From positions 1 through 7,066 of the IMG/VR virus record IMGVR_UViG_2531839200_000011: DNA of 7,066 nt; one strand, given 5' to 3'. Shown here piece by piece: positions 1-7,066 of the stretch. Every line of letters begins with the position of its first letter. Position 1 is the first letter of the stretch. The notes below the pieces were generated by a model. That model saw only the letters and a list, made by a program, of their open reading frames with translations. It did no database searches and had not been told where the DNA came from. The DNA comes from a virus (taxonomy: Duplodnaviria > Heunggongvirae > Uroviricota > Caudoviricetes). The translations under genes were made by a program, and so were the position numbers.

Positions 1-210
1 ACGTTCAGCGCTGGTGAGCCCACCATCACCGCCCCCGGTATCCCGCTCATGCTGGCGAACCCAGACACGCAGAGTCTCCGGCGTACAGCCAATCTTTGGG
101 GCAATGGAACAAATTGCCGCCCACTGTGAGTCATATTCATCCTGACTTTCCAGAACCATACGAATCGCCCGCTGACGGACTTCGGGGGAAAAACGAGTAT
201 TTTTAGTCAT
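1..210 (-). CDS. IS3-family transposase OrfA (HTH subunit), N-terminal 70 codons; 3' part lies outside the window
   Basis: ATG at complement 208-210, preceded on the minus strand by GAGG-containing AGAGGTAAACAGG. The translation is a characteristic IS3-family OrfA N-terminus. The frame is open to the window edge. Confidence 0.85.
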
Positions 211-264
211 CCTGTTTACCTCTTTCTCAGGGAGTTTAGTCTCCAGGATTTCCGGGGCGGTTCA
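1..264 (-). mobile_element. Partial IS3-family insertion sequence (IS629/IS1203-like), left-end terminal inverted repeat at about 211-264; the element continues beyond the window start
   Basis: The minus strand of 1-210 translates to [70 protein letters not shown], which matches from memory the N-terminus of IS629-type OrfA. The reverse complement of 211-264 starts TGAACCGCCCCGG, a typical IS3-family TG terminus. Base composition and coding change abruptly after about 264. Confidence 0.8.
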
Positions 265-497
265 CTCAGGCTGAAATAGGTCGTTATATGGGGGTCGCTC
301 AACAGACGGTTTGGCAATGGTTTAGCTTTGGCGTTCCCCCAAAGCAGGTAATTCCGTTATGCCAACTAATGAAGTGGGAAGTTACCCCGCATGAAATCCG
401 CCCAGATATTTATCCTAACCCAACCGACGGTTTACCTGTTGGATGTAAGGTTAACACATCAAATGCGCCGGAGTTGATTCATGAAAATCAAGCATGA
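265..497 (+). pseudogene. 5'-truncated cro/ydaS-type HTH regulator gene, interrupted by the IS insertion
   Basis: The frame is open from the IS junction to the TGA at 495-497 and reads ...QAEIGRYMGVAQQTVWQWFSFGVPPKQVIPLCQLMKWEVTPHEIRPDIYPNP.... This has the recognition-helix signature (GVxQQxVxQW) and the C-terminal 'RPD' motif of YdaS/Cro-like proteins. The N-terminal helices and promoter are missing. The ATG at 288 is probably an internal Met, not the native start. Confidence 0.6.
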
Positions 498-906
498 ACA
501 CATCCGCATGGCGATGAATGCCTGGGCGCATCCGGACGGCGAAAAAGTACCGGCTGCGAAAATTACCAAAGCGTATTTCGAGCTGGGAATGACGTTCCCG
601 GAACTGTATGACGACAGCCATCCGGAAGCCATGGCTCGCAATACTCAGAAAATTTTCCGCTGGGTGGAGAAAGACACTCCTGATGCGGTTAAAAAAATTC
701 AGGCGTTGTTACCAGCGATCGAAAAAGCGATGCCGCCTCCGCTGGTGGCCCGAATGCGCAGCCACAGTTCCGCTTATTTTCGGGAGTTGGTAGAGACGAA
801 GGAACGGCTGGTGAAAGATATTGATGATTTCGTTGCATCAGCGATCGTTCTGTTCGATCAGATGAATCGTGGTGGCCCGGCAGGAAACACTCTGGCTGTG
901 CATTAA
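481..906 (+). CDS. ydaT: YdaT-family protein (lambdoid prophage early gene; putative CII-like/toxin-like protein)
   Basis: 141-aa ORF beginning MKIKHEHI and ending ...VH, the characteristic start of Rac-type YdaT as I recall it. GGAG lies 8 nt upstream. The start overlaps the 3' end of the cro-like remnant, consistent with an operon. Confidence 0.7.
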   Translation: MKIKHEHIRMAMNAWAHPDGEKVPAAKITKAYFELGMTFPELYDDSHPEAMARNTQKIFRWVEKDTPDAVKKIQALLPAIEKAMPPPLVARMRSHSSAYFRELVETKERLVKDIDDFVASAIVLFDQMNRGGPAGNTLAVH

Positions 907-919
907 TTGGGTAATAAAT

Positions 920-1429
920 ATGAGTAATGACAAAAAATTGACACTGAGCGTTTACGAAAACAGTCCGCACATCTGGCGTGGCGGTTTATCTGATGTGGAG
1001 CTGGCAGAGTGGTTGATACATAAAGCTAATGCGCTGCTCTGGCGTTTGTCAGCCAGAGAACAGCGCAAGGAAACCAGAATAAAGCTGGCTGATGCAGAAG
1101 CGTGTGCCGGGCTTATTGAGGATTATACAAATCTTGGTATTTCTTCAGCAGAGAGTGATCCCATTCAGCCTCTGAGCAGGGAGTCAATCCAGCACGCTGG
1201 TTGTATGGCACATCTTGTAACTGCTCGTCAACATGAGGTGGGTATTGGATCACTTCCGGCGGGATATTCGCTGATTCCAGAGCTGGTTGAAGCAAGAAAA
1301 TCAGTTCAGAAAAAGAGAGATGACGCACTTCAATTATTGAGAGAGCACTATGGCGCGATACCAGAATGCGAACAGCGTCGATACCCTGAAGGTTATGAAT
1401 GGATGCAGTCTCTTTTTGAAGTTCGCTAA
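920..1429 (+). CDS. Hypothetical prophage early protein (169 aa)
   Basis: ATG at 920 lies 13 nt after the ydaT stop and the frame is open to TAA at 1427-1429. Composition is protein-like (MSNDKKLTLSVYENSPHIWRGG...). No family recognised. The track ORF starting at 869 overlaps ydaT and is probably an artefactual 5' extension. Confidence 0.5.
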   Translation: MSNDKKLTLSVYENSPHIWRGGLSDVELAEWLIHKANALLWRLSAREQRKETRIKLADAEACAGLIEDYTNLGISSAESDPIQPLSRESIQHAGCMAHLVTARQHEVGIGSLPAGYSLIPELVEARKSVQKKRDDALQLLREHYGAIPECEQRRYPEGYEWMQSLFEVR

Positions 1430-1646
1430 TCAATATGTCGAGACGAAGGTATGTTTCGGCGCGCAGCCAGGCTCTGTAATCCGGGAGCATTTCGGGGCTG
1501 TTACACCAGCGGTTTGTTGCTGCAACATTTAATACATGAGCCTGATAAAGGCTTTTCAAAAAATACATGTCGAACCTCCTCTGGTTCTGTCGATTGGGAA
1601 CCACAGATTATATCCGGAGGAAGGTTCGGCACCAGATGAGGTAGCC

Positions 1647-2738
1647 ATGCGTGATTACGCAAAAGTTTCTCCGCGATTCTGGCTGGGAGAAACGGGGAGA
1701 GAACTTAGAAAGGCGGGTGCAGAAGCGCAAGTTGTTGCTTTTTACCTGATGACATCCCCTCACGCAAATATGCTGGGTTTGTATTACCTGCCAGTTTTAT
1801 ACCTTGCTCATGAAACCGGGCTTGGTCTGGAAGGGGCTTCAAAGGGGCTTAAAAGGGCTGTTGAAGCTGGTTTTTGTAGCTATGACCATGATGCAGAGAT
1901 GGTCTGGGTCCATGAAATGGCAGCCTGGCAGGTTGGGGAAACGTTGAAGCCTGGCGATAACCGTTGTGCAGGTGTCAGGAATGAGTATGCATCATTACCT
2001 GAAAACGCTTTTCTGTCAGTGTTTTACGACAGATATAAAACGGATTTCCATCTGGATGTGAGGCGGAATAATAGCCGAAATTCGGTAAGGGGCTTCGAAG
2101 GGGCTTTTAAGGGGCTTCGAAGCCAAGAACAGGAACAGGAGCAGGAGAAAGAACAGGAACAGGACAAAAACACTATGGTTCATGGCAAAAAAAACACCAC
2201 GAACCAGGCAGGGGATGTTCAGACCGTCAATCCTGGTCAGCCAGCAGGCACGACACCGGAAGCCGATTCGGGCGCTGTGCAGCAGGTGATGACCGCAGGG
2301 TCGGAGCAATCACACCAACTGCAGCAGCCTGAAGCCGATTCCGCCATTCAGCGGGAAGCCGATCGGGTAGTCCCGGAAAGCACCGGGCAGTCTGTGGGAC
2401 GAGTGGATTATCCGGATGTGTTCGAACAGGTCTGGCGGGAATACCCGTTGCGTGCTGGGGCAAACCCGAAGAAATCCGCTTTCAGTGCCTGGAAGGCCAG
2501 ATTGCGCGAGGGGGTGCCACCAGAGACCATGCTGGATGGTGTGAGGCGTTACGCGAGATACCTGGCGGCGACCGGGAAAGCGGGAACGGAATTTGTTCAG
2601 CGAGCGACGACGTTTTTTGGGCCGGACCGGAATTTTGAAAACCCCTGGTTGCTCCCGGTAAGCGGCACGAACAACCAGCGTTGTGTGAATCATATTTCTG
2701 AACCGGATACCGAAATTCCGCCGGGATTCAGGGGGTGA
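1647..2738 (+). CDS. Phage replication initiator / replisome organiser with DnaT-like (primosomal protein 1) C-terminal domain
   Basis: The ATG at 1647 has GAGG 6 nt upstream; an alternative in-frame ATG at 1536 has no SD. The C-terminus ...VNHISEPDTEIPPGFRG matches the C-terminal signature of E. coli DnaT from memory. The N-terminal part (MRDYAKVSPRFWLGETGREL...) resembles YdaU/DUF1376-type phage replication proteins. The gene sits immediately upstream of a DnaC paralog, mirroring the chromosomal dnaT-dnaC pair. Confidence 0.8.
   Translation: MRDYAKVSPRFWLGETGRELRKAGAEAQVVAFYLMTSPHANMLGLYYLPVLYLAHETGLGLEGASKGLKRAVEAGFCSYDHDAEMVWVHEMAAWQVGETLKPGDNRCAGVRNEYASLPENAFLSVFYDRYKTDFHLDVRRNNSRNSVRGFEGAFKGLRSQEQEQEQEKEQEQDKNTMVHGKKNTTNQAGDVQTVNPGQPAGTTPEADSGAVQQVMTAGSEQSHQLQQPEADSAIQREADRVVPESTGQSVGRVDYPDVFEQVWREYPLRAGANPKKSAFSAWKARLREGVPPETMLDGVRRYARYLAATGKAGTEFVQRATTFFGPDRNFENPWLLPVSGTNNQRCVNHISEPDTEIPPGFRG
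1831..1860 (+). repeat. Three tandem 11-bp repeats AAGGGGCTTnn (third copy degenerate) inside the replication gene
   Basis: Read directly: aaggggcttc(a) at 1831, aaggggctta(a) at 1842, aagggctg at 1853, with 11-bp periodicity. Confidence 0.5.
2087..2124 (+). repeat. Three perfect-core tandem 11-bp repeats AAGGGGCTTnn plus palindrome GGCTTCGAAGCC; candidate iterons of an internal origin
   Basis: Read directly: aaggggcttcg (2087-2097), aaggggctttt (2098-2108), aaggggcttcg (2109-2119). ggcttcgaagcc (2113-2124) is a perfect 12-bp palindrome. The core is the same as in the 1831-1860 cluster. Confidence 0.5.
2127..2168 (+). repeat. In-frame hexanucleotide repeat (GAACAG)n-like, 7 units, encoding an EQEQEQEKEQEQDK linker, followed by an A-rich tract
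   Basis: Read directly: gaacag gaacag gagcag gagaaa gaacag gaacag gacaaa. It is in frame with the 1647 start. An A-rich stretch (gcaaaaaaaacacc) follows at about 2185-2198. Confidence 0.9.
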
Positions 2739-2744
2739 TGTGGC

Positions 2745-3491
2745 ATGAAAAACATTGCGGCAGCCGGGGTTCTTGAACGTATTCGCAGACTTGCACCACA
2801 GGCGTCGGTTCCACCGTACCGGACGGTGGAGGAGTGGCGGGAATGGCAACTTGCTGAAGGACGAAAACGCAGCGAGGAGATTAACCGCCAGAATCACCAG
2901 TTGCGGGTGGAAAAAATCCTGAATCGTTCGGGCATCCAGCCTCTGCACAGCAAATGCTCGTTTGCGAATTATCAGGTGCAGAACGACGGGCAAAAATACG
3001 CGCTGAGCCAGGCCAAATCCATAGCTGACGAACTGATGACCGGGTGCACGAATTTTGTGTTCAGCGGTAAAACCGGCACCGGGAAAAATCACCTTGCAGC
3101 GGCGATGGGTAACCGGCTGATGGCGAAGGGGCGCAGCGTGATTATCGTCACCGTGTCTGATGTCATGAGCGTGTTGCATGACAGCTACGACAACGGCAAA
3201 TCCGGGGAAAAATTTTTACAGGAGCTTTGCAGTGTTGATTTGCTGGTCCTGGATGAAATAGGCGTTCAGCGGGAGACGAAAAACGAGCAGGTGGTATTAC
3301 ACCAGATAATTGATCGCCGGACAGCATCACTGTGCAGTGTCGGGATGTTAACAAACCTGAATCATGCCGCAATGAGTACACTTCTTGGTGAGAGGATTAT
3401 GGACCGCATGACCATGAACGGTGGTCGATGGGTGACGTTTAACTGGGATAGCTGGCGTCCAAATGTCAGCAATATGAGGGTTGTGAAGTAA
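2745..3491 (+). CDS. dnaC: DnaC-family replicative helicase loader (prophage DnaC paralog, YdaV-like)
   Basis: The 248-aa ORF starts 7 nt after the upstream stop, with a GGGGG tract upstream. Walker A FSGKTGTGKNHLAAA has the unusual GKN also found in E. coli DnaC. Walker B is DLLVLDEIG. The C-terminal stretch GMLTNLNHAAMSTLLGERIMDRM...WVTFNWDSWR is closely DnaC-like from memory. Confidence 0.9.
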   Translation: MKNIAAAGVLERIRRLAPQASVPPYRTVEEWREWQLAEGRKRSEEINRQNHQLRVEKILNRSGIQPLHSKCSFANYQVQNDGQKYALSQAKSIADELMTGCTNFVFSGKTGTGKNHLAAAMGNRLMAKGRSVIIVTVSDVMSVLHDSYDNGKSGEKFLQELCSVDLLVLDEIGVQRETKNEQVVLHQIIDRRTASLCSVGMLTNLNHAAMSTLLGERIMDRMTMNGGRWVTFNWDSWRPNVSNMRVVK

Positions 3492-3512
3492 TTTTGTCCG
3501 GAGGAAATTTTA

Positions 3513-4283
3513 ATGGAAACCGTATCTGACGCACTGAAAGCACTGAAAAAAGCCTCTTCACATGTGGTGGCAGCTCGCCTTGGAATCAGTCGTGAAGAGG
3601 CTGTCAACGAGCTGTGGGAACTCAAAATAAATGGCGTCGTTGATAAAACTGGTCACACCTGGTTTCTGGCTGGCGAAGGTGAATCCCGGGTAACCGAAGA
3701 GCGGCCAGTAAAATCTGAAGCACAGGATATGCTGACCGGGGAGGTCGAACAAAAAGTTACCGCAGACATGATGATTGAGTTTATCGGTCAGGATGGGGCT
3801 AAAACGTGTGAGGAACTGGCGGGTAAGTTCGGTGTCAGTACTCGCAAGGTTGCTTCCACGCTGGCGGTGGTAACCGCAACGGGGCGGCTGGCACGCGTTA
3901 ATCAGAACGGTAAATTTCGTTACTGCATGCCGGGCGATAATTTACCAGCAGAGCCGAAAGCCGCGCTGGTAACGGAAAGTGATGGTAAGGCCTTTCCTCA
4001 GCCAGCAGGTGCTGCGTTACCAGTCCGGGAAGCCGCAACACAGGAAGAAATTAAAACAGAAACTGTGGCGGACATTGTGCAGCCGTTGCCATCGTTTACC
4101 GAAACGCAAGCAGATGAGCTGATTTTTCCGTCCCTTCGCAGGGCAAACCTGGCGCTGCGCAGGGCGAAAAGTGATGTTCAGAAGTGGGAGCGAGTCTGCG
4201 CCGCGCTGCGGGAGCTGAACAAGCACCGGGATATTGTTCGACAGATTACTGATTCTTCCCGCCGTGTTGTATCGGAAAAGTGA
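3513..4283 (+). CDS. Hypothetical prophage protein (256 aa) with two predicted winged-helix-like modules and a basic/coiled C-terminal segment
   Basis: GGAGG 8 nt upstream of the ATG and a long open frame. Two internally similar segments, ...VAARLGISREEAVNELWELKINGVV... and ...ELAGKFGVSTRKVASTLAVVTATGRLARV..., are followed by an acidic linker and RRANLALRRAKSDVQKWERV. Confidence 0.7.
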   Translation: METVSDALKALKKASSHVVAARLGISREEAVNELWELKINGVVDKTGHTWFLAGEGESRVTEERPVKSEAQDMLTGEVEQKVTADMMIEFIGQDGAKTCEELAGKFGVSTRKVASTLAVVTATGRLARVNQNGKFRYCMPGDNLPAEPKAALVTESDGKAFPQPAGAALPVREAATQEEIKTETVADIVQPLPSFTETQADELIFPSLRRANLALRRAKSDVQKWERVCAALRELNKHRDIVRQITDSSRRVVSEK

Positions 4284-4298
4284 TTGCCGGAGGCGCTT

Positions 4299-4712
4299 AT
4301 GGCAAAAGTATTTACACAGGAAGAGCGGGAAAAAATTAAAGGGCAGGTTGTTGAGCTAGTACGCCGGAGTGGGCGCGAGACGTTACGGCAACTGGAAGCC
4401 AAGACAGGTGCGACAAGATATCTGATGAGCGTTCTTGCCAGAGAGCTGGTTGCCAGTGGCGATGTATACAACTCTGGTTACGGGTTATTCCCATCTGAAC
4501 AGGCTCGTAAGGACTGGCAAAACGCCCGCAAAAAACTATCGAGGGCAAAACTGAAGAAACCGGTTGTGGTTGATCCTGACCTTATCTGGTCATTACCAGA
4601 CGGAGAAATACGCCGCTATGACAGGCAATTGAACATAATTTGTAGTGAGTGCCGTAACAGTGAAGTGATGCAGCGAGTTTTGATATTTTACACAGGAGTA
4701 ATGATGGAATAG
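4299..4712 (+). CDS. Hypothetical prophage protein (137 aa) with one winged-helix-like module related to those in the upstream gene
   Basis: ATG at 4299 with GGAGG 6 nt upstream, 15 nt after the previous stop. The segment VVELVRRSGRETLRQLEAKTGATRYLMSVLARELVASGDV follows the same pattern as the upstream modules. The track start at 4284 would overlap the upstream stop. Confidence 0.65.
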   Translation: MAKVFTQEEREKIKGQVVELVRRSGRETLRQLEAKTGATRYLMSVLARELVASGDVYNSGYGLFPSEQARKDWQNARKKLSRAKLKKPVVVDPDLIWSLPDGEIRRYDRQLNIICSECRNSEVMQRVLIFYTGVMME

Positions 4713-6060
4713 TGAAAATAACATGAAACCTTTGGATTCTGGTGTTTCAGTGGATGGGAAAAGAGCAGATACATAGAAAATGAATAGCAATAATTCACAG
4801 TCTGGATGTTGTTTGTATGCTTATAAAATGATCCTAGTATGCATTGCCGGAGTTGAATCAGCTCCAATGAAGAAACTGAGAGGAGTATTTAGAAGATAGC
4901 TAAATGGATGTAATTATTAGTATCTAAAAAATAGTATTTTTGAAATGGGTCTAAGAACACAACAATGTACAAATGAGAAGTTATCTTTTAATATGTTCAA
5001 AGACCCATTAGGATTGATATCAGTTATGTTAGCTAGATTGATAAAGTGATTACATATTTTCTGTTATATGCTGAAATGAATAATGCTATTCCAGAGTGCA
5101 GCAGAGAAAGTCTCCTGATGATTGAGCTCTGGAAATTGTACAATAGAAAAATTACTGTATTTTTCTGTCAAAATATTTCTCAAAACAGATTCCGCTTTGA
5201 TGGCTTCAGGATATAAAGATGCGGAGTAATCAAGGCTAAGATTTCCGTTAAGCAAGCATATACTTTTAGTGTGCTTTGATTCTGATATATCATCTTTAAT
5301 TATCTTGATGATTCTTTCATTCTGCCATAGAAGTGATGGTGCAGATATATAATAATAGTTAAAGCATGAATTATTTTTTAAGCAATCAAGCACAAAAATA
5401 GCACCTAGCGAGTGCCCCCATATACCGATTCTGGAACTGTTCGGAGCAATAGTACTAACCCATGGCATGATCTGAGTTAGTAATAATTCTCGGAAAGACT
5501 GGCTTCCTCCACCAGTAAAGTAGATCCATGCTGGTTTAGAGTTATCAACAATAGCATTTTCACCATCAGGAGTATAATCGTAAGCACGGCGATGAATGCT
5601 AAGGTTATTCCAAGATTCATAACCAAGTGTAACTAACACTGGTGGATTGGGTAGTGCATCAATAACAGGCAGAATATCAGAAATGTAATTGTTGGCACTA
5701 TTCCCATCAAGTATATAAAGAGTTGCATTATTTTTTTTAATGTTTTTTGGAGTAAAAATACATATTTTATATTTGGTGTCATGGTTAATTGAGTTAAATA
5801 TGCGTGTTTGACAATGAATGTCCATATGTTTAGTCATGCGTTCTCCCCATGAGCATTAAAGGATGCTTAAGATATGCTATGTCACTGATAAAAAATTTGT
5901 TGTGTGTGTTTAGTTATTTTATCTACCTCCATTATGATTTAAGACTGATATATGTTATCAGCAAAGGTACATCGTTATTATTTTACCTGTCAATACATTT
6001 GATATTGATTATCGTTTACATCGCTTGCTTAGGAAATTGAAGGCAGGTAACTATCATGTC
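4713..6060. other. AT-rich island (moron-like cargo insertion) between the phage replication module and the hok locus
   Basis: Composition shifts sharply to AT-rich sequence across this interval. It holds a single convincing gene, on the opposite strand to all flanking phage genes, flanked by non-coding AT-rich DNA. Confidence 0.7.
5064..5837 (-). CDS. Alpha/beta-hydrolase, esterase family (PF00756-like 'putative esterase'; Fes/IroE/esterase-D-like fold), encoded in an AT-rich island
   Basis: 257-aa ORF on the minus strand; on that strand the start is preceded by GGGGAGAACGC, i.e. a GGAG about 5 nt upstream. Nucleophile elbow G-H-S-L-G (IGIWGHSLGA), an upstream YILDGN motif and a C-terminal His (ELNHQETF) fit a Ser-Asp-His esterase. 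No obvious N-terminal signal peptide. G+C looks roughly one-third by eye versus above 50% in flanking phage genes. Confidence 0.75.
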   Translation of the reverse strand: MTKHMDIHCQTRIFNSINHDTKYKICIFTPKNIKKNNATLYILDGNSANNYISDILPVIDALPNPPVLVTLGYESWNNLSIHRRAYDYTPDGENAIVDNSKPAWIYFTGGGSQSFRELLLTQIMPWVSTIAPNSSRIGIWGHSLGAIFVLDCLKNNSCFNYYYISAPSLLWQNERIIKIIKDDISESKHTKSICLLNGNLSLDYSASLYPEAIKAESVLRNILTEKYSNFSIVQFPELNHQETFSAALWNSIIHFSI

Positions 6061-6319
6061 AATGAACTAACCCACAGTCTAACGTACTTCTTTCCCCAAT
6101 CACCAACAACCAAATTCCTGTTATCACCACTGGGATTTTGGCGCAACTTCATGGTGCAGAGGTAAATAGCATCAAGCAAAATCTCTTTTTCCGTTGTTGT
6201 CCTTATGGGACGTCTGTCTTTCTGACCGATTTCATATTGGCGAGGTAATGGGAAGTTAAGTAGAATAGCTGCGGGTGCTTGAGGCTATCTGCCTCGGGCA
6301 TGAACACCAACGGCAGATA

Positions 6320-6400
6320 GAGAAAAGCCCCAGTTAACATTACGCGTCCTGCAAGACGCCTAACATTAATCTGAGGCTCAATCTATGAACGGCAAATCTA
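6320..6400 (-). ncRNA. sok: Putative Sok-like antisense RNA region (approximate), antisense to the hok leader / upstream ORF start
   Basis: Inferred from hok/sok architecture. On the minus strand near 6390-6430 there is TTGCCT, a 17-bp spacer, then TAACCT as a weak promoter-like pair. A stem-loop (atctgcc...ggcagat, 6286-6319) lies in the leader. The boundaries are not determined. Confidence 0.3.
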
Positions 6401-6441
6401 GGTTAGCCTCTTACGTGCCGAAAGGCAAGGAGAAGCAGGCT

Positions 6442-6597
6442 ATGAAGCAGCAAAAGGCGATGTTAATCGCCCTGATCGTCATCTGTTTAACCGTCATAGT
6501 GACGGCACTGGTAACGAGGAAAGACCTCTGCGAGGTACGAGTCCGAACCGGCCAGACGGAGGTCGCTGTCTTCACAGCTTACGAACCTGAGGAGTAA
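6442..6597 (+). CDS. hok: Hok/Gef-family type I toxin (51 aa membrane peptide), near-identical to RelF/HokD as recalled
   Basis: The translation MKQQKAMLIALIVICLTVIVTALVTRKDLCEVRVRTGQTEVAVFTAYEPEE is a canonical Hok-family sequence. An in-frame upstream ATG at 6385 gives the 70-aa track ORF, which may be the leader or a Mok-like reading frame. Confidence 0.9.
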   Translation: MKQQKAMLIALIVICLTVIVTALVTRKDLCEVRVRTGQTEVAVFTAYEPEE

Positions 6598-6664
6598 GAG
6601 ACCTGGCGGGGGAGAAATCCCTCGCCACCTCTGATGAATCAGGCATCCTCAACGCACCCGCACT

Positions 6665-6692
6665 TAACCCGCTTCGGCGGGTTTTGTTTTTT
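6665..6692 (+). terminator. Rho-independent terminator of the hok transcript
   Basis: aacccgc-ttcg-gcgggtt hairpin followed by the T-run ttttgtttttt, about 70 nt after the hok stop. Confidence 0.8.
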
Positions 6693-6764
6693 CCTGGCAT
6701 TCTGGTTTACAATTCGCACGCCAGCCTGAACAACTGGCACCTGCTGCGCCAGCAGAGAAAACAG

Positions 6765-7043
6765 ATGGCGCACGATACCAAATTATACAATTCGGATAAC
6801 TCTGCCGCCCCTGCCAGCAGGCACGGACGGCGTTCTCACGCATTCAAATCTGACTGGTACCAGCACCACCCATGCACCGAAGAACAGGCCGAATGGCTCA
6901 TTCAGTGTTACCGCAGGCGCGGATACGAGGTTAAAAAAGCCCTCAGCCTCGACTACCGTCACTGGATAATCTCCGTCAGGCTCCCTTACTCCGAACGCCC
7001 ACCGCGTCCGTCCCGCACATTCCAGCAACGCATCTGGAGGTAA
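6765..7043 (+). CDS. Hypothetical small basic protein (92 aa)
   Basis: ATG at 6765 downstream of the hok terminator; the track start at 6684 is a TTG inside the terminator and is unlikely. Translation: MAHDTKLYNSDNSAAPASRHGRRSHAFKSDWYQHHPCTEEQAEWLIQCYRRRGYEVKK.... Its position downstream of hok is analogous to rem downstream of hokD in the K-12 Qin prophage, but I cannot verify sequence identity. Confidence 0.5.
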   Translation: MAHDTKLYNSDNSAAPASRHGRRSHAFKSDWYQHHPCTEEQAEWLIQCYRRRGYEVKKALSLDYRHWIISVRLPYSERPPRPSRTFQQRIWR

Positions 7044-7044
7044 C

Positions 7045-7066
7045 GTGCGGGTATTACTTCGACCTG
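7045..7066 (+). CDS. Possible 5' end of the next gene (GTG start), truncated by the window end
   Basis: GGAGG at 7036-7040 is followed 4 nt later by GTG at 7045 with an open frame to the window edge. Only 7 codons are visible. Confidence 0.2.

Follow-up and report, generated by a model that had tools for sequence, protein, structure and literature searches.

The replication initiator of a Rac-like prophage, carrying the terminal peptide of DnaT and encoded beside a DnaC-family helicase loader

The DNA considered here, 7,066 nucleotides corresponding to positions 1 to 7,066 of the IMG/VR virus record IMGVR_UViG_2531839200_000011 (the window, by which we mean this whole stretch), is the early-right, or replication, region of a Rac-like lambdoid prophage of Escherichia coli. 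Its identity to prophage DNA of other E. coli strains, O157:H7 and O26:H11 among them, is 99.2–99.7%, at least 80% of it is present in 419 complete E. coli genomes, and the module is of a kind already known, Rac ydaU-ydaV-like, widespread and annotated automatically. Two adjacent genes concern us most, one encoding a phage replication initiator and the other a DnaC-family AAA+ helicase loader (Table 1); both lie exactly where the first-pass annotation of the sequence had placed them, in the order and with the tight junction of the host dnaT-dnaC genes. The pair itself is routine, and the comparative pattern around it matters more: the initiator ends in the terminal peptide of DnaT, and initiators that share the peptide differ from those with other endings in the kind of loader encoded next to them.

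The initiator gene, which follows ydaS- and ydaT-like genes and precedes the loader gene, occupies most of an open reading frame (ORF) spanning 1536–2738, within which the start at 1647 is both annotated and supported by homology, being preceded by a GAGG Shine-Dalgarno sequence and agreeing with homologs that begin MRDY.... These homologs (n = 1808; 290–374 amino acids (aa) in length) are labelled ‘DNA-binding protein’ or ‘phage replisome organizer’, and a Pfam search of the 363-aa protein matched no family. An AlphaFold2 model built on a 47-sequence alignment divides it into an N-terminal domain of moderate confidence, a disordered stretch, a confidently predicted small helical domain (here the pre-tail domain, with helices at residues 257–265, 275–287 and 292–309) and a low-confidence tail, whose low to moderate predicted local distance difference test score (pLDDT) is as expected for a flexible peptide. 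The best matches of the N-terminal domain in a Foldseek search of the PDB were MarR-type winged-helix proteins, at non-significant E-values of 0.25–1; in the model the domain looks like a winged helix, and it is presumably the origin-binding part of the protein.

The sites to which it would bind lie within its own gene. The word AAGGGGCTT occurs in five exact copies in the window, at 1831, 1842, 2087, 2098 and 2109, all of them inside the initiator gene, where they impose a repeated peptide on the protein (EGASKGL and EGAFKGL). The same two-cluster, 11-bp-phased layout is found in homologs, with four copies of AAGGGGCTT in one locus (L025) and four of AAAGGGTT in another (L052), and further homologs have other iteron words, GCGTCCGCA in pairs in L060 and GGTCAAAATG at 23-bp spacing in L012. 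By analogy with the lambda origin inside the O gene, the (GAACAG)n repeat and A-rich stretch next to the second cluster are a candidate unwinding region and, together with the iterons, a likely replication origin. As the lambda iterons also lie within the O gene, the internal position of those described here supports the assignment of the protein as an initiator.

Table 1. Features of the window, in order of position
Feature	Position	Strand	Remarks
YdaS-like gene	288–497		upstream of the replication genes, as in Rac
YdaT-like gene	481–906		upstream of the replication genes, as in Rac
Replication initiator (‘replisome organizer’) gene	1647–2738	+	363 aa; RefSeq WP_001205823.1
N-terminal domain of initiator, about residues 7–91	1665–1919	+	predicted helices and beta-hairpin; pLDDT 60–81
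Iteron cluster 1	1831–1861		two exact AAGGGGCTT, 11 bp apart, and a degenerate third, AAAGGGCTG
Disordered linker of initiator, residues about 92–250	1920–2396	+	acidic, Q/E-rich; pLDDT <50 over 92–251; length varies among homologs
Iteron cluster 2	2087–2117		three exact AAGGGGCTT at 11-bp phase
(GAACAG)n repeat, then A-rich stretch	2127–2200		adjoins iterons; encodes QEQEQE acidic linker
Pre-tail helical domain of initiator, residues 251–339 (YPDVFEQVWREYP...FFGPDRNFENPW)	2397–2663	+	pLDDT 80–96
DnaT-type C-terminal peptide of initiator, residues 340–363 (...RCVNHISEPDTEIPPGFRG), and stop codon	2664–2738	+	
Optional cassette, DnaC-like and DUF1627 genes	2739–4295	+	~1.56 kb; absent from otherwise homologous modules
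DnaC-family AAA+ helicase loader gene (YdaV-type, PRK12377)	2745–3491	+	248 aa; WP_000788751.1, ‘ATP-binding protein’
N-terminal region of loader, residues 1–60	2745–2924	+	aligns with 6QEL DnaC from residue 2; conserved positions
Walker A of loader, GKTGTGKNHLA	3066–3098	+	DnaC: GKPGTGKNHLA; both GKN; three-way alignment
Walker B of loader, DLLVLDEIG	3237–3263	+	DnaC: DLLVIDEIG; three-way alignment
DUF1627 gene	3513–4283	+	
DUF977 gene	4296–4690		downstream of DUF1627 gene

The first-pass annotation had called the initiator DnaT-like on the strength of its C-terminus, ...NNQRCVNHISEPDTEIPPGFRG, and the resemblance there is real and above chance. The NCBIfam DnaT model (NF002770) matches residues 340–363 only, at model positions 156–179 of 179 (E 0.0019), phmmer against the PDB aligns the DnaT chains 6aep, 2ru8 and 9zbt over the last 22–24 residues only, pairwise BLASTP with DnaT gives 60% identity across 25 aa (E 9e-8), and the terminal motif PDxxIPPGFRG is identical in the initiator and in E. 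coli DnaT. As a description of the protein, the label fails. The whole-protein test against NF002770 gave 17.8 bits against a cut-off of 201; the three-helix domain that binds single-stranded DNA (ssDNA) in DnaT (PF17948, residues 84–153) has no Pfam match in the initiator at E-values up to 0.01; and neither phmmer nor BLASTP found similarity to DnaT residues 1–88, which comprise the N-terminal oligomerisation domain and the acidic PriB-binding linker, the acidic linker that the initiator does possess being non-homologous to that of DnaT. When a profile built from the last 135 residues of the initiator family was aligned with that of the DnaT C-terminal domain in hhalign, the probability was 97% with the tail included and 16%, over 28 columns, with the tail removed. 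Foldseek searches of the PDB with the full initiator model and with its C-terminal domain returned neither a significant match nor any DnaT chain, and for the C-terminal domain nothing with E <1. Pfam, BLAST, hhalign, and AlphaFold combined with Foldseek leave only that marginal 28-column match, and domain-level homology to DnaT was rejected as unproven. The initiator carries the DnaT terminal peptide, in an alignment confined to the last ~25 residues, and by the test that the first-pass annotation itself proposed is not DnaT-like at the level of domains.

The loader, by comparison, aligns end to end with E. coli DnaC as found in an electron cryomicroscopy (cryo-EM) entry of DnaB-DnaC (6QEL_G; residues 2–242, E 1.7e-73), and shares 47.7% identity with K-12 DnaC and 79.8% with YdaV of Rac. 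It passes the NCBIfam subfamily PRK12377 (509.4 bits against a cut-off of 389, residues 1–248 of 248) and PF01695 (IstB_IS21; 69.5 bits against 24.1) and fails the DnaC equivalog NF005931 (298.7 bits against 357), scores that class it as a phage-type DnaC paralog and not as dnaC. A three-way alignment with YdaV and DnaC confirmed the GKN Walker A motif, the Walker B motif and the C-terminal region that had been predicted, although at 47.7% identity the paralog is hardly the ‘close’ one that had been proposed. Also invariant in the three proteins are GMLTN, GERxMDRM and WVxFNWxSxR, which we take to be the sensor I, arginine-finger and sensor II regions. The N-terminal region of DnaC is reported, in the work behind 6QEL and 6QEM, to be the part that binds DnaB. 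As the motifs expected to bind DnaB and ATP are all present and the gene lies in an optional cassette, one could regard the paralog as mainly a competitor or poison of host DnaB, that is, a toxic cryptic-prophage gene or hijacking factor and not a productive loader, the more so as excess DnaC inhibits DnaB. We consider this highly improbable: numerous functional temperate phages (POCJ13, Gifsy-2, and phages of Klebsiella and Aeromonas) have conserved the paralog directly after the initiator, and this is the standard position for a loader.

Only 6 nt separate the initiator and loader genes, so that tail codons, stop codon and loader start all fall within 10 nt, and the junction DNA (window 2700–2760) is similar to that of a host dnaT-dnaC locus (L002, 1950–2050, minus strand), with the shared pattern ...ATTCCxCCxGGATTCAGxGGGTxA..ATGAAAAAC. 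This similarity suggests that the tail and the start of the loader were inherited as one block. The block can nevertheless be interrupted after the tail: because locus L010, whose initiator is 96% identical to that of the window up to the stop codon, passes from there to the DUF977 gene in 40 bp, the segment 2739–4295 is evidently a presence/absence cassette, and initiators of the window family that are without it presumably use host DnaC. It had been proposed that the pair mirrors the host dnaT-dnaC operon. Gene order and junction DNA agree with this, but the direction is probably the reverse, since dnaC is considered to have been domesticated from a phage (PMC5109545) and many phage initiators contain the complete C-terminal domain of DnaT.

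How widely the tail is used by phage initiators was examined with a degenerate DNA pattern for P-x3-I-P-x-G-F-R-G-stop, searched in viral contigs. It is present in at least 120 contigs, and in 119 of the 120 listed it forms the true C-terminus of a replication-protein ORF of 200–400 aa. The conserved terminal motif is P-D/E-x-x-I-P-x-G-F-R-G-COOH, and the commonest ending among 120 initiator homologs is S-x-P-x-x-x-I-P-x-G-F-R/K-G. Clustering of the tail-bearing proteins with the tail removed yields at least five N-terminal groups and at least four pre-tail groups; at the N-terminus, Pfam recognises DUF1376, Phage_rep_O, HTH_36/DnaD_N or no domain. The tail sits behind at least five unrelated pre-tail domains: PF17948 DnaT domains (L060, L071 and L007), PF09524 Phg_2220_C (L070), and domains of the YdaU, window and L012 types. 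The last of these is a homolog of the C-terminal domain of lambda O (BLAST 2e-26, O residues 188–270), and past residue 270 the sequences diverge, lambda O ending ...NTDWIYGVDL and the L012 protein ...RCVNHISEPDTEIPPGFRG. YdaU of Rac, which is not homologous to the window initiator outside the tail, ends ...RQVNTVSLPDSAIPPGFRG. DnaT orthologs retain the motif as far as Buchnera (...PDQTIPNGFRGK), and P86, G88, F89 and G91 are invariant in an alignment of DnaT C-termini. On these comparisons the tail is a portable, independent terminal module. Some depositors label tail-bearing phage proteins ‘primosomal protein I’, and the likeness to DnaT has to that extent already been caught by automatic annotation; we found no study of the tail motif in the searchable literature, nor any report there of what is added here, namely that the peptide is shared without the DnaT domain, that it is portable and that it co-varies with the type of loader.

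That co-variation emerges when the genes next to the initiators are considered. A DnaC-like gene, 53–100% identical to YdaV or to the window protein, is present in 71 of the 119 true IPxGFRG loci listed, and in 68 of these 71 it begins within a few bases of the initiator stop codon. In the other 48, the fetched locus contains neither a DnaC-like nor a P-like gene (within several kb), and a strict rule that the tail always precedes a phage DnaC-like gene was rejected on this account. Both layouts are found in inducible or plaque-forming phages, Gifsy-2 having the tail and a DnaC-like gene and SPN1S the tail without a loader. None of the 119 listed loci has a lambda-P homolog. Approached from the side of the loader, 75 of 77 viral loci with a window-type loader have an upstream ORF ending SEPDTEIPPGFRG, with two types of initiator represented, and in lambda-P loci O ends ...NTDWIYGV(D/E)L in 79 of 79.

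Some initiators have related domains and different tails. A search with the DnaT C-terminal-domain profile of 1.84 billion cluster representatives recovered only 162 clusters, many of which do not have the DnaT tail and end otherwise. Four such DnaT-domain proteins with W-rich tails, P0282 (...DWNNTDWIEGV...), P0304, P0314 and P0264 (which ends ...VPHWNSPEAWEDFL), were followed up at their loci (L207, L211, L213 and L424), and a Phage_lambda_P gene comes directly after each. The window-type pre-tail domain bears other tails in the O protein of Stx2_499 and in gp20 of BcepIL02 (...SEQDYGSTNFNW and ...EDYDDFFNHRRGFDR), and mEpX1 O, with a YdaU-type pre-tail domain, ends ...KDYGQTEMPSWAQE; these DYG...W-tailed initiators are followed by a DnaC-like loader of another kind, which has a zinc ribbon at its N-terminus. 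Tail type thus tracks loader type, IPxGFRG going with DnaC or a DnaC-like protein or with no phage loader, NTDW with lambda P, and DYG...W with zinc-ribbon DnaC-like proteins, and a swap of tail coincides with a swap of loader in about four independent domain backgrounds. Loci L420, L421 and L422 likewise have initiators with tails of classes other than IPxGFRG. A further class, with an acidic ...PLDxEER...LDxxDW tail, comprises P0280 and many others; no recognisable loader lies downstream in the one locus of this class examined (P0280), nor downstream of P0376, which also bears a tail of another class, and the sequence context of P0306 and P0271 is cut by contig edges.

Proximity might account for this correlation without any function. 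If the last ~75 nt of the initiator gene travelled with the loader in mosaic recombination, tail and loader would be correlated as an artefact of linkage, and the role of the tail might be minor or unrelated; the 10 nt that hold tail codons, stop and loader start, the likeness of the junction in host dnaT-dnaC and in the window, the overlap of lambda O and P, and recombination boundaries just upstream of the tail are all in keeping with this. It is nonetheless quite improbable, as modules that have no loader and carry unrelated pre-tail domains (L060, L070, L071 and SPN1S) keep the tail intact, and so does DnaT of the reduced Buchnera genomes. Persistence of the tail in both settings argues for purifying selection that is independent of linkage to a phage loader, although it does not identify the partner for which the tail is kept.

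The distribution of the tail is narrow. A tblastn comparison with 50,697 phage records gave 47 matching records, each of them from Escherichia, Salmonella, Klebsiella or Shigella. When genomes were scanned at one per species, the 80 loci with titles shown, to which our figures apply, contained 42 real tails, every one in a genus of the Enterobacterales except for that of a ‘Proteobacteria’ metagenome-assembled genome, in which the adjoining DnaC is 91% identical to E. coli DnaC; all of them belong either to dnaT followed by dnaC or to prophage initiators. Wide occurrence outside the Enterobacterales was rejected, as the matches in other phyla are chance DNA, all but one without an ORF of at least 120 aa ending there, and the sole remaining case, a Micromonospora ORF, was dismissed for want of the extended motif. 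The only clear non-Enterobacterales case seen is the Aeromonas phage pAEv1818 (L418, 1551–3223), where a DnaT-domain initiator annotated as ‘primosomal protein I’ has the variant tail ...GEYGEKPPGFN and the DnaC-like loader encoded next is 53% identical to that of the window. The narrow distribution of the tail is that reported for domesticated dnaC (PMC5109545).

Taken together, these comparisons lead us to favor a model, to which we would assign a probability of roughly 0.55, in which the window holds a Rac-like replication module whose tail peptide links the initiator, bound at the origin, to a complex of DnaB•DnaC type, with the loader supplied by the phage or by the host. In this scheme the initiator would bind, through its winged-helix-like N-terminal domain, the phased AAGGGGCTT iterons in its own gene, which with the adjacent repeat and A-rich stretch would constitute the origin. 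Its terminal peptide, the same as the C-terminus of host DnaT, would serve as a short docking motif (NHISEPDTEIPPGFRG being the candidate peptide) that recruits DnaB bound to a DnaC-type loader, either the DnaC paralog of the module (2745–3491) or, in relatives that have none, host DnaC. The loader would then open the DnaB ring and set DnaB on the unwound origin by means of its conserved AAA+ motifs. We infer that the tail physically binds DnaC or DnaB•DnaC. A broader and more tentative proposal, which we hold at somewhat less than even odds, is that PDxxIPxGFRG-COOH is the element by which DnaT and the phage initiators that copy it recruit DnaB•DnaC, that an exchangeable ‘tail code’ sets the loader, and that the host dnaT-dnaC pair descends from a phage initiator-loader module, domesticated with its tail retained. 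Spelled out, and just as tentatively, the code would read IPxGFRG for DnaC-type loaders, NTDW-type endings for lambda P and DYG...W for zinc-ribbon DnaC-like loaders.

How DnaT recruits DnaB/DnaC has been stated to be unknown (PMC13377028, PMC5778457, PMC11087952), and in the cryo-EM preprimosome the copies of DnaT were built from the crystal structure of residues 84–153, leaving the tail without an assigned contact (PMC13377028). Several considerations weigh against the model that we favor. No DnaT-DnaC interaction is documented, such contact having been described as ‘tempting to speculate’ (PMC5778457, PMC11087952), and the authors of the 2026 cryo-EM study prefer the N-terminal domain of DnaT as the recruiter of DnaB/DnaC, by analogy with DnaA (PMC13377028). 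The tail may instead act on DNA, as deletion of DnaT residues 154–179 weakens ssDNA binding about two-fold in vitro (PMC4132743). In both host and phage the tail codons lie directly against the start codon of the loader, and co-inheritance of tail and loader could therefore reflect linkage in mosaic recombination; our samples, moreover, are made redundant by numerous E. coli prophages that are nearly identical, such that raw counts overstate independence and the independent evidence amounts to the roughly four domain backgrounds. Finally, the 48 loader-less loci among the 119 listed fit the use of host DnaC but equally that of any other host partner.

Two of these points correspond to explanations in their own right. 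The tail could be an aid to nucleic-acid binding or oligomerisation that helps the initiator, or DnaT, to hold or coat ssDNA for the loading of DnaB; it has a conserved arginine and a conserved aromatic residue, and DnaT 84–153, from which the tail is missing, shows an approximately two-fold loss of dT30 binding, with lower cooperativity, relative to longer forms (PMC4132743). This we think unlikely, for the in vitro effect is slight, the tail has an acidic composition overall (E/D-P-D...) and follows domains without known ssDNA binding, and a generic ssDNA aid would be expected neither to be absent from every module with a lambda-P-type or zinc-ribbon loader nor to be nearly confined to the Enterobacterales. 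Alternatively, the tail could dock on another host restart or hub protein (PriA, PriB, PriC, SSB-interaction pockets or DnaG), in which case the initiator would hijack the PriA-type primosome and would not engage DnaC directly. The C-terminal ...DDDIPF peptide of SSB binds PriA and other partners, and the tail, acidic and then I-P-x-G-F near the C-terminus, loosely recalls it. Some host factor must be the target in the 48 of 119 listed tail initiators that have no phage loader; and DnaT does work within the PriA/PriB complex (PMC13377028). We regard this as slightly more unlikely still: the cryo-EM models place the PriA and PriB contacts of DnaT in the three-helix bundle and the acidic linker, PriA, SSB and DnaG are universal while the tail is nearly confined to the Enterobacterales, and the type of tail changes with the type of loader. 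Coupling to a DnaB•DnaC-type complex therefore remains our preferred role for the tail.

The genes around the pair, read from the F3113 annotation (E. coli O157:H7) together with Pfam and NCBIfam searches, are those of a lambdoid early region. The annotated order begins with a repressor-type helix-turn-helix gene and the ydaS-like and ydaT-like genes, continues with an ECs1072-family gene on the opposite strand, the ‘hypothetical protein’ of window 1647–2738 and the ‘ATP-binding protein’ of 2745–3491, and closes with DUF1627, DUF977, a low-GC alpha/beta-hydrolase gene, hokD, DUF968, rusA and Q. In Rac, ydaS and ydaT are toxic when derepressed (PMC5700373). Within 869–1604 a long ORF on the plus strand (869–1429, 186 aa) overlaps one on the minus strand (1113–1604, 163 aa). 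The latter alone is annotated in RefSeq, as an ‘ECs1072 family phage-associated protein’, and it breaks the otherwise rightward operon between the ydaT-like gene and the initiator. Farther right, 4750–6250 is a low-GC island (GC 0.32–0.37, compared with ~0.5 on both flanks) that holds the alpha/beta-hydrolase gene (257 aa; 5064–5837, minus strand) and looks like a moron insertion. Beyond it is a hok/sok type I toxin-antitoxin locus at 6273–6597, with an Rfam sok match of 105.6 bits at 6273–6447, a Hok-family ORF at 6385–6597 and the hokD annotation at ~6442–6597. In many otherwise identical prophage copies, insertion sequences (IS1203/IS629, ISEc8 and IS481-family) lie within the region, and because of them the matches to the window are broken into 2–4 pieces.

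The finding itself is modest; the hypothesis of DnaB•DnaC recruitment that derives from it is of real but unproven interest. A tail of 20 residues is the only part of DnaT that unrelated phage initiators have kept, it co-varies with the type of loader, and it bears on the handover from PriA-PriB-DnaT to DnaB•DnaC. If the hypothesis is true, it would explain how loader-less initiators, such as that of phage SPN1S, engage the host, and would provide a rule for predicting the loader dependence of prophage replication modules; the matter is also relevant to possible interference of cryptic prophage modules with the restart of host replication.

Among known systems, DopC-DopE comprises a domesticated lambda O-like protein with a ‘DnaT_C’ domain and a P-like loader (Brezellec et al., 2017; PMC5509034), and it is an earlier published example in which C-terminal sequence of DnaT is joined to the N-terminal part of a phage-type initiator and encoded beside a helicase loader. 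The window initiator is its converse, having the tail without the DnaT domain, whereas in DopC the C-terminal domain of DnaT was reported to be present, on an HHpred match to 2ru8, and the partner is a P-like loader; P0314 and P0264 have a DopC/DopE-like architecture, with W-rich tails and not IPxGFRG. The modules that pair O-like initiators with phiP27-type loaders (mEpX1, Stx phages and BcepIL02) share with the window the layout of an initiator followed by an AAA+ loader and, in Stx2_499 O and BcepIL02 gp20, the window-type pre-tail domain (...FVKQASTFFGPDRHFEESW), but their loaders have a zinc-ribbon N-terminus and are ~30–39% identical to that of the window within the AAA+ part only, and their initiators have DYG...W tails.

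Phage lambda resembles the window in having iterons inside the initiator gene, a helicase-loading protein encoded after it, a position downstream of cro/cII-type genes, and an initiator whose C-terminal part is the loader-specific one, the C-terminus of lambda O binding P. It differs in that its loader P is not an AAA+ DnaC homolog and O ends ...NTDWIYGVDL, not IPPGFRG. BLAST found no match between the window initiator and lambda O, and Pfam matched neither PF04492 (Phage_rep_O) nor PF09524 (Phg_2220_C) in the window protein; the Phg_2220_C type of C-domain has been assigned to lambda O (PMC5509034). E. coli dnaT-dnaC likewise places a tail-bearing protein directly before a DnaC-family loader, with similar junction DNA and a loader 47.7% identical over its full length, but the window initiator has neither the N-terminal domain of DnaT nor a detectable PF17948 and instead has an N-terminal domain of presumed origin-binding type and internal iterons. 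YdaU-YdaV of Rac (K-12 b1359-b1360) has the same gene order, the same 6-nt gap, ydaS/ydaT upstream, a DUF977-type gene downstream and a loader that is 79.8% identical. YdaU shares its tail ending with the window initiator and is not homologous to it outside the last 19 residues, having a DUF1376 N-terminal domain (PF07120, which has no match in the window protein) and another pre-tail domain; it also resembles DnaT over a longer stretch than the window initiator does (40% over 80 aa).

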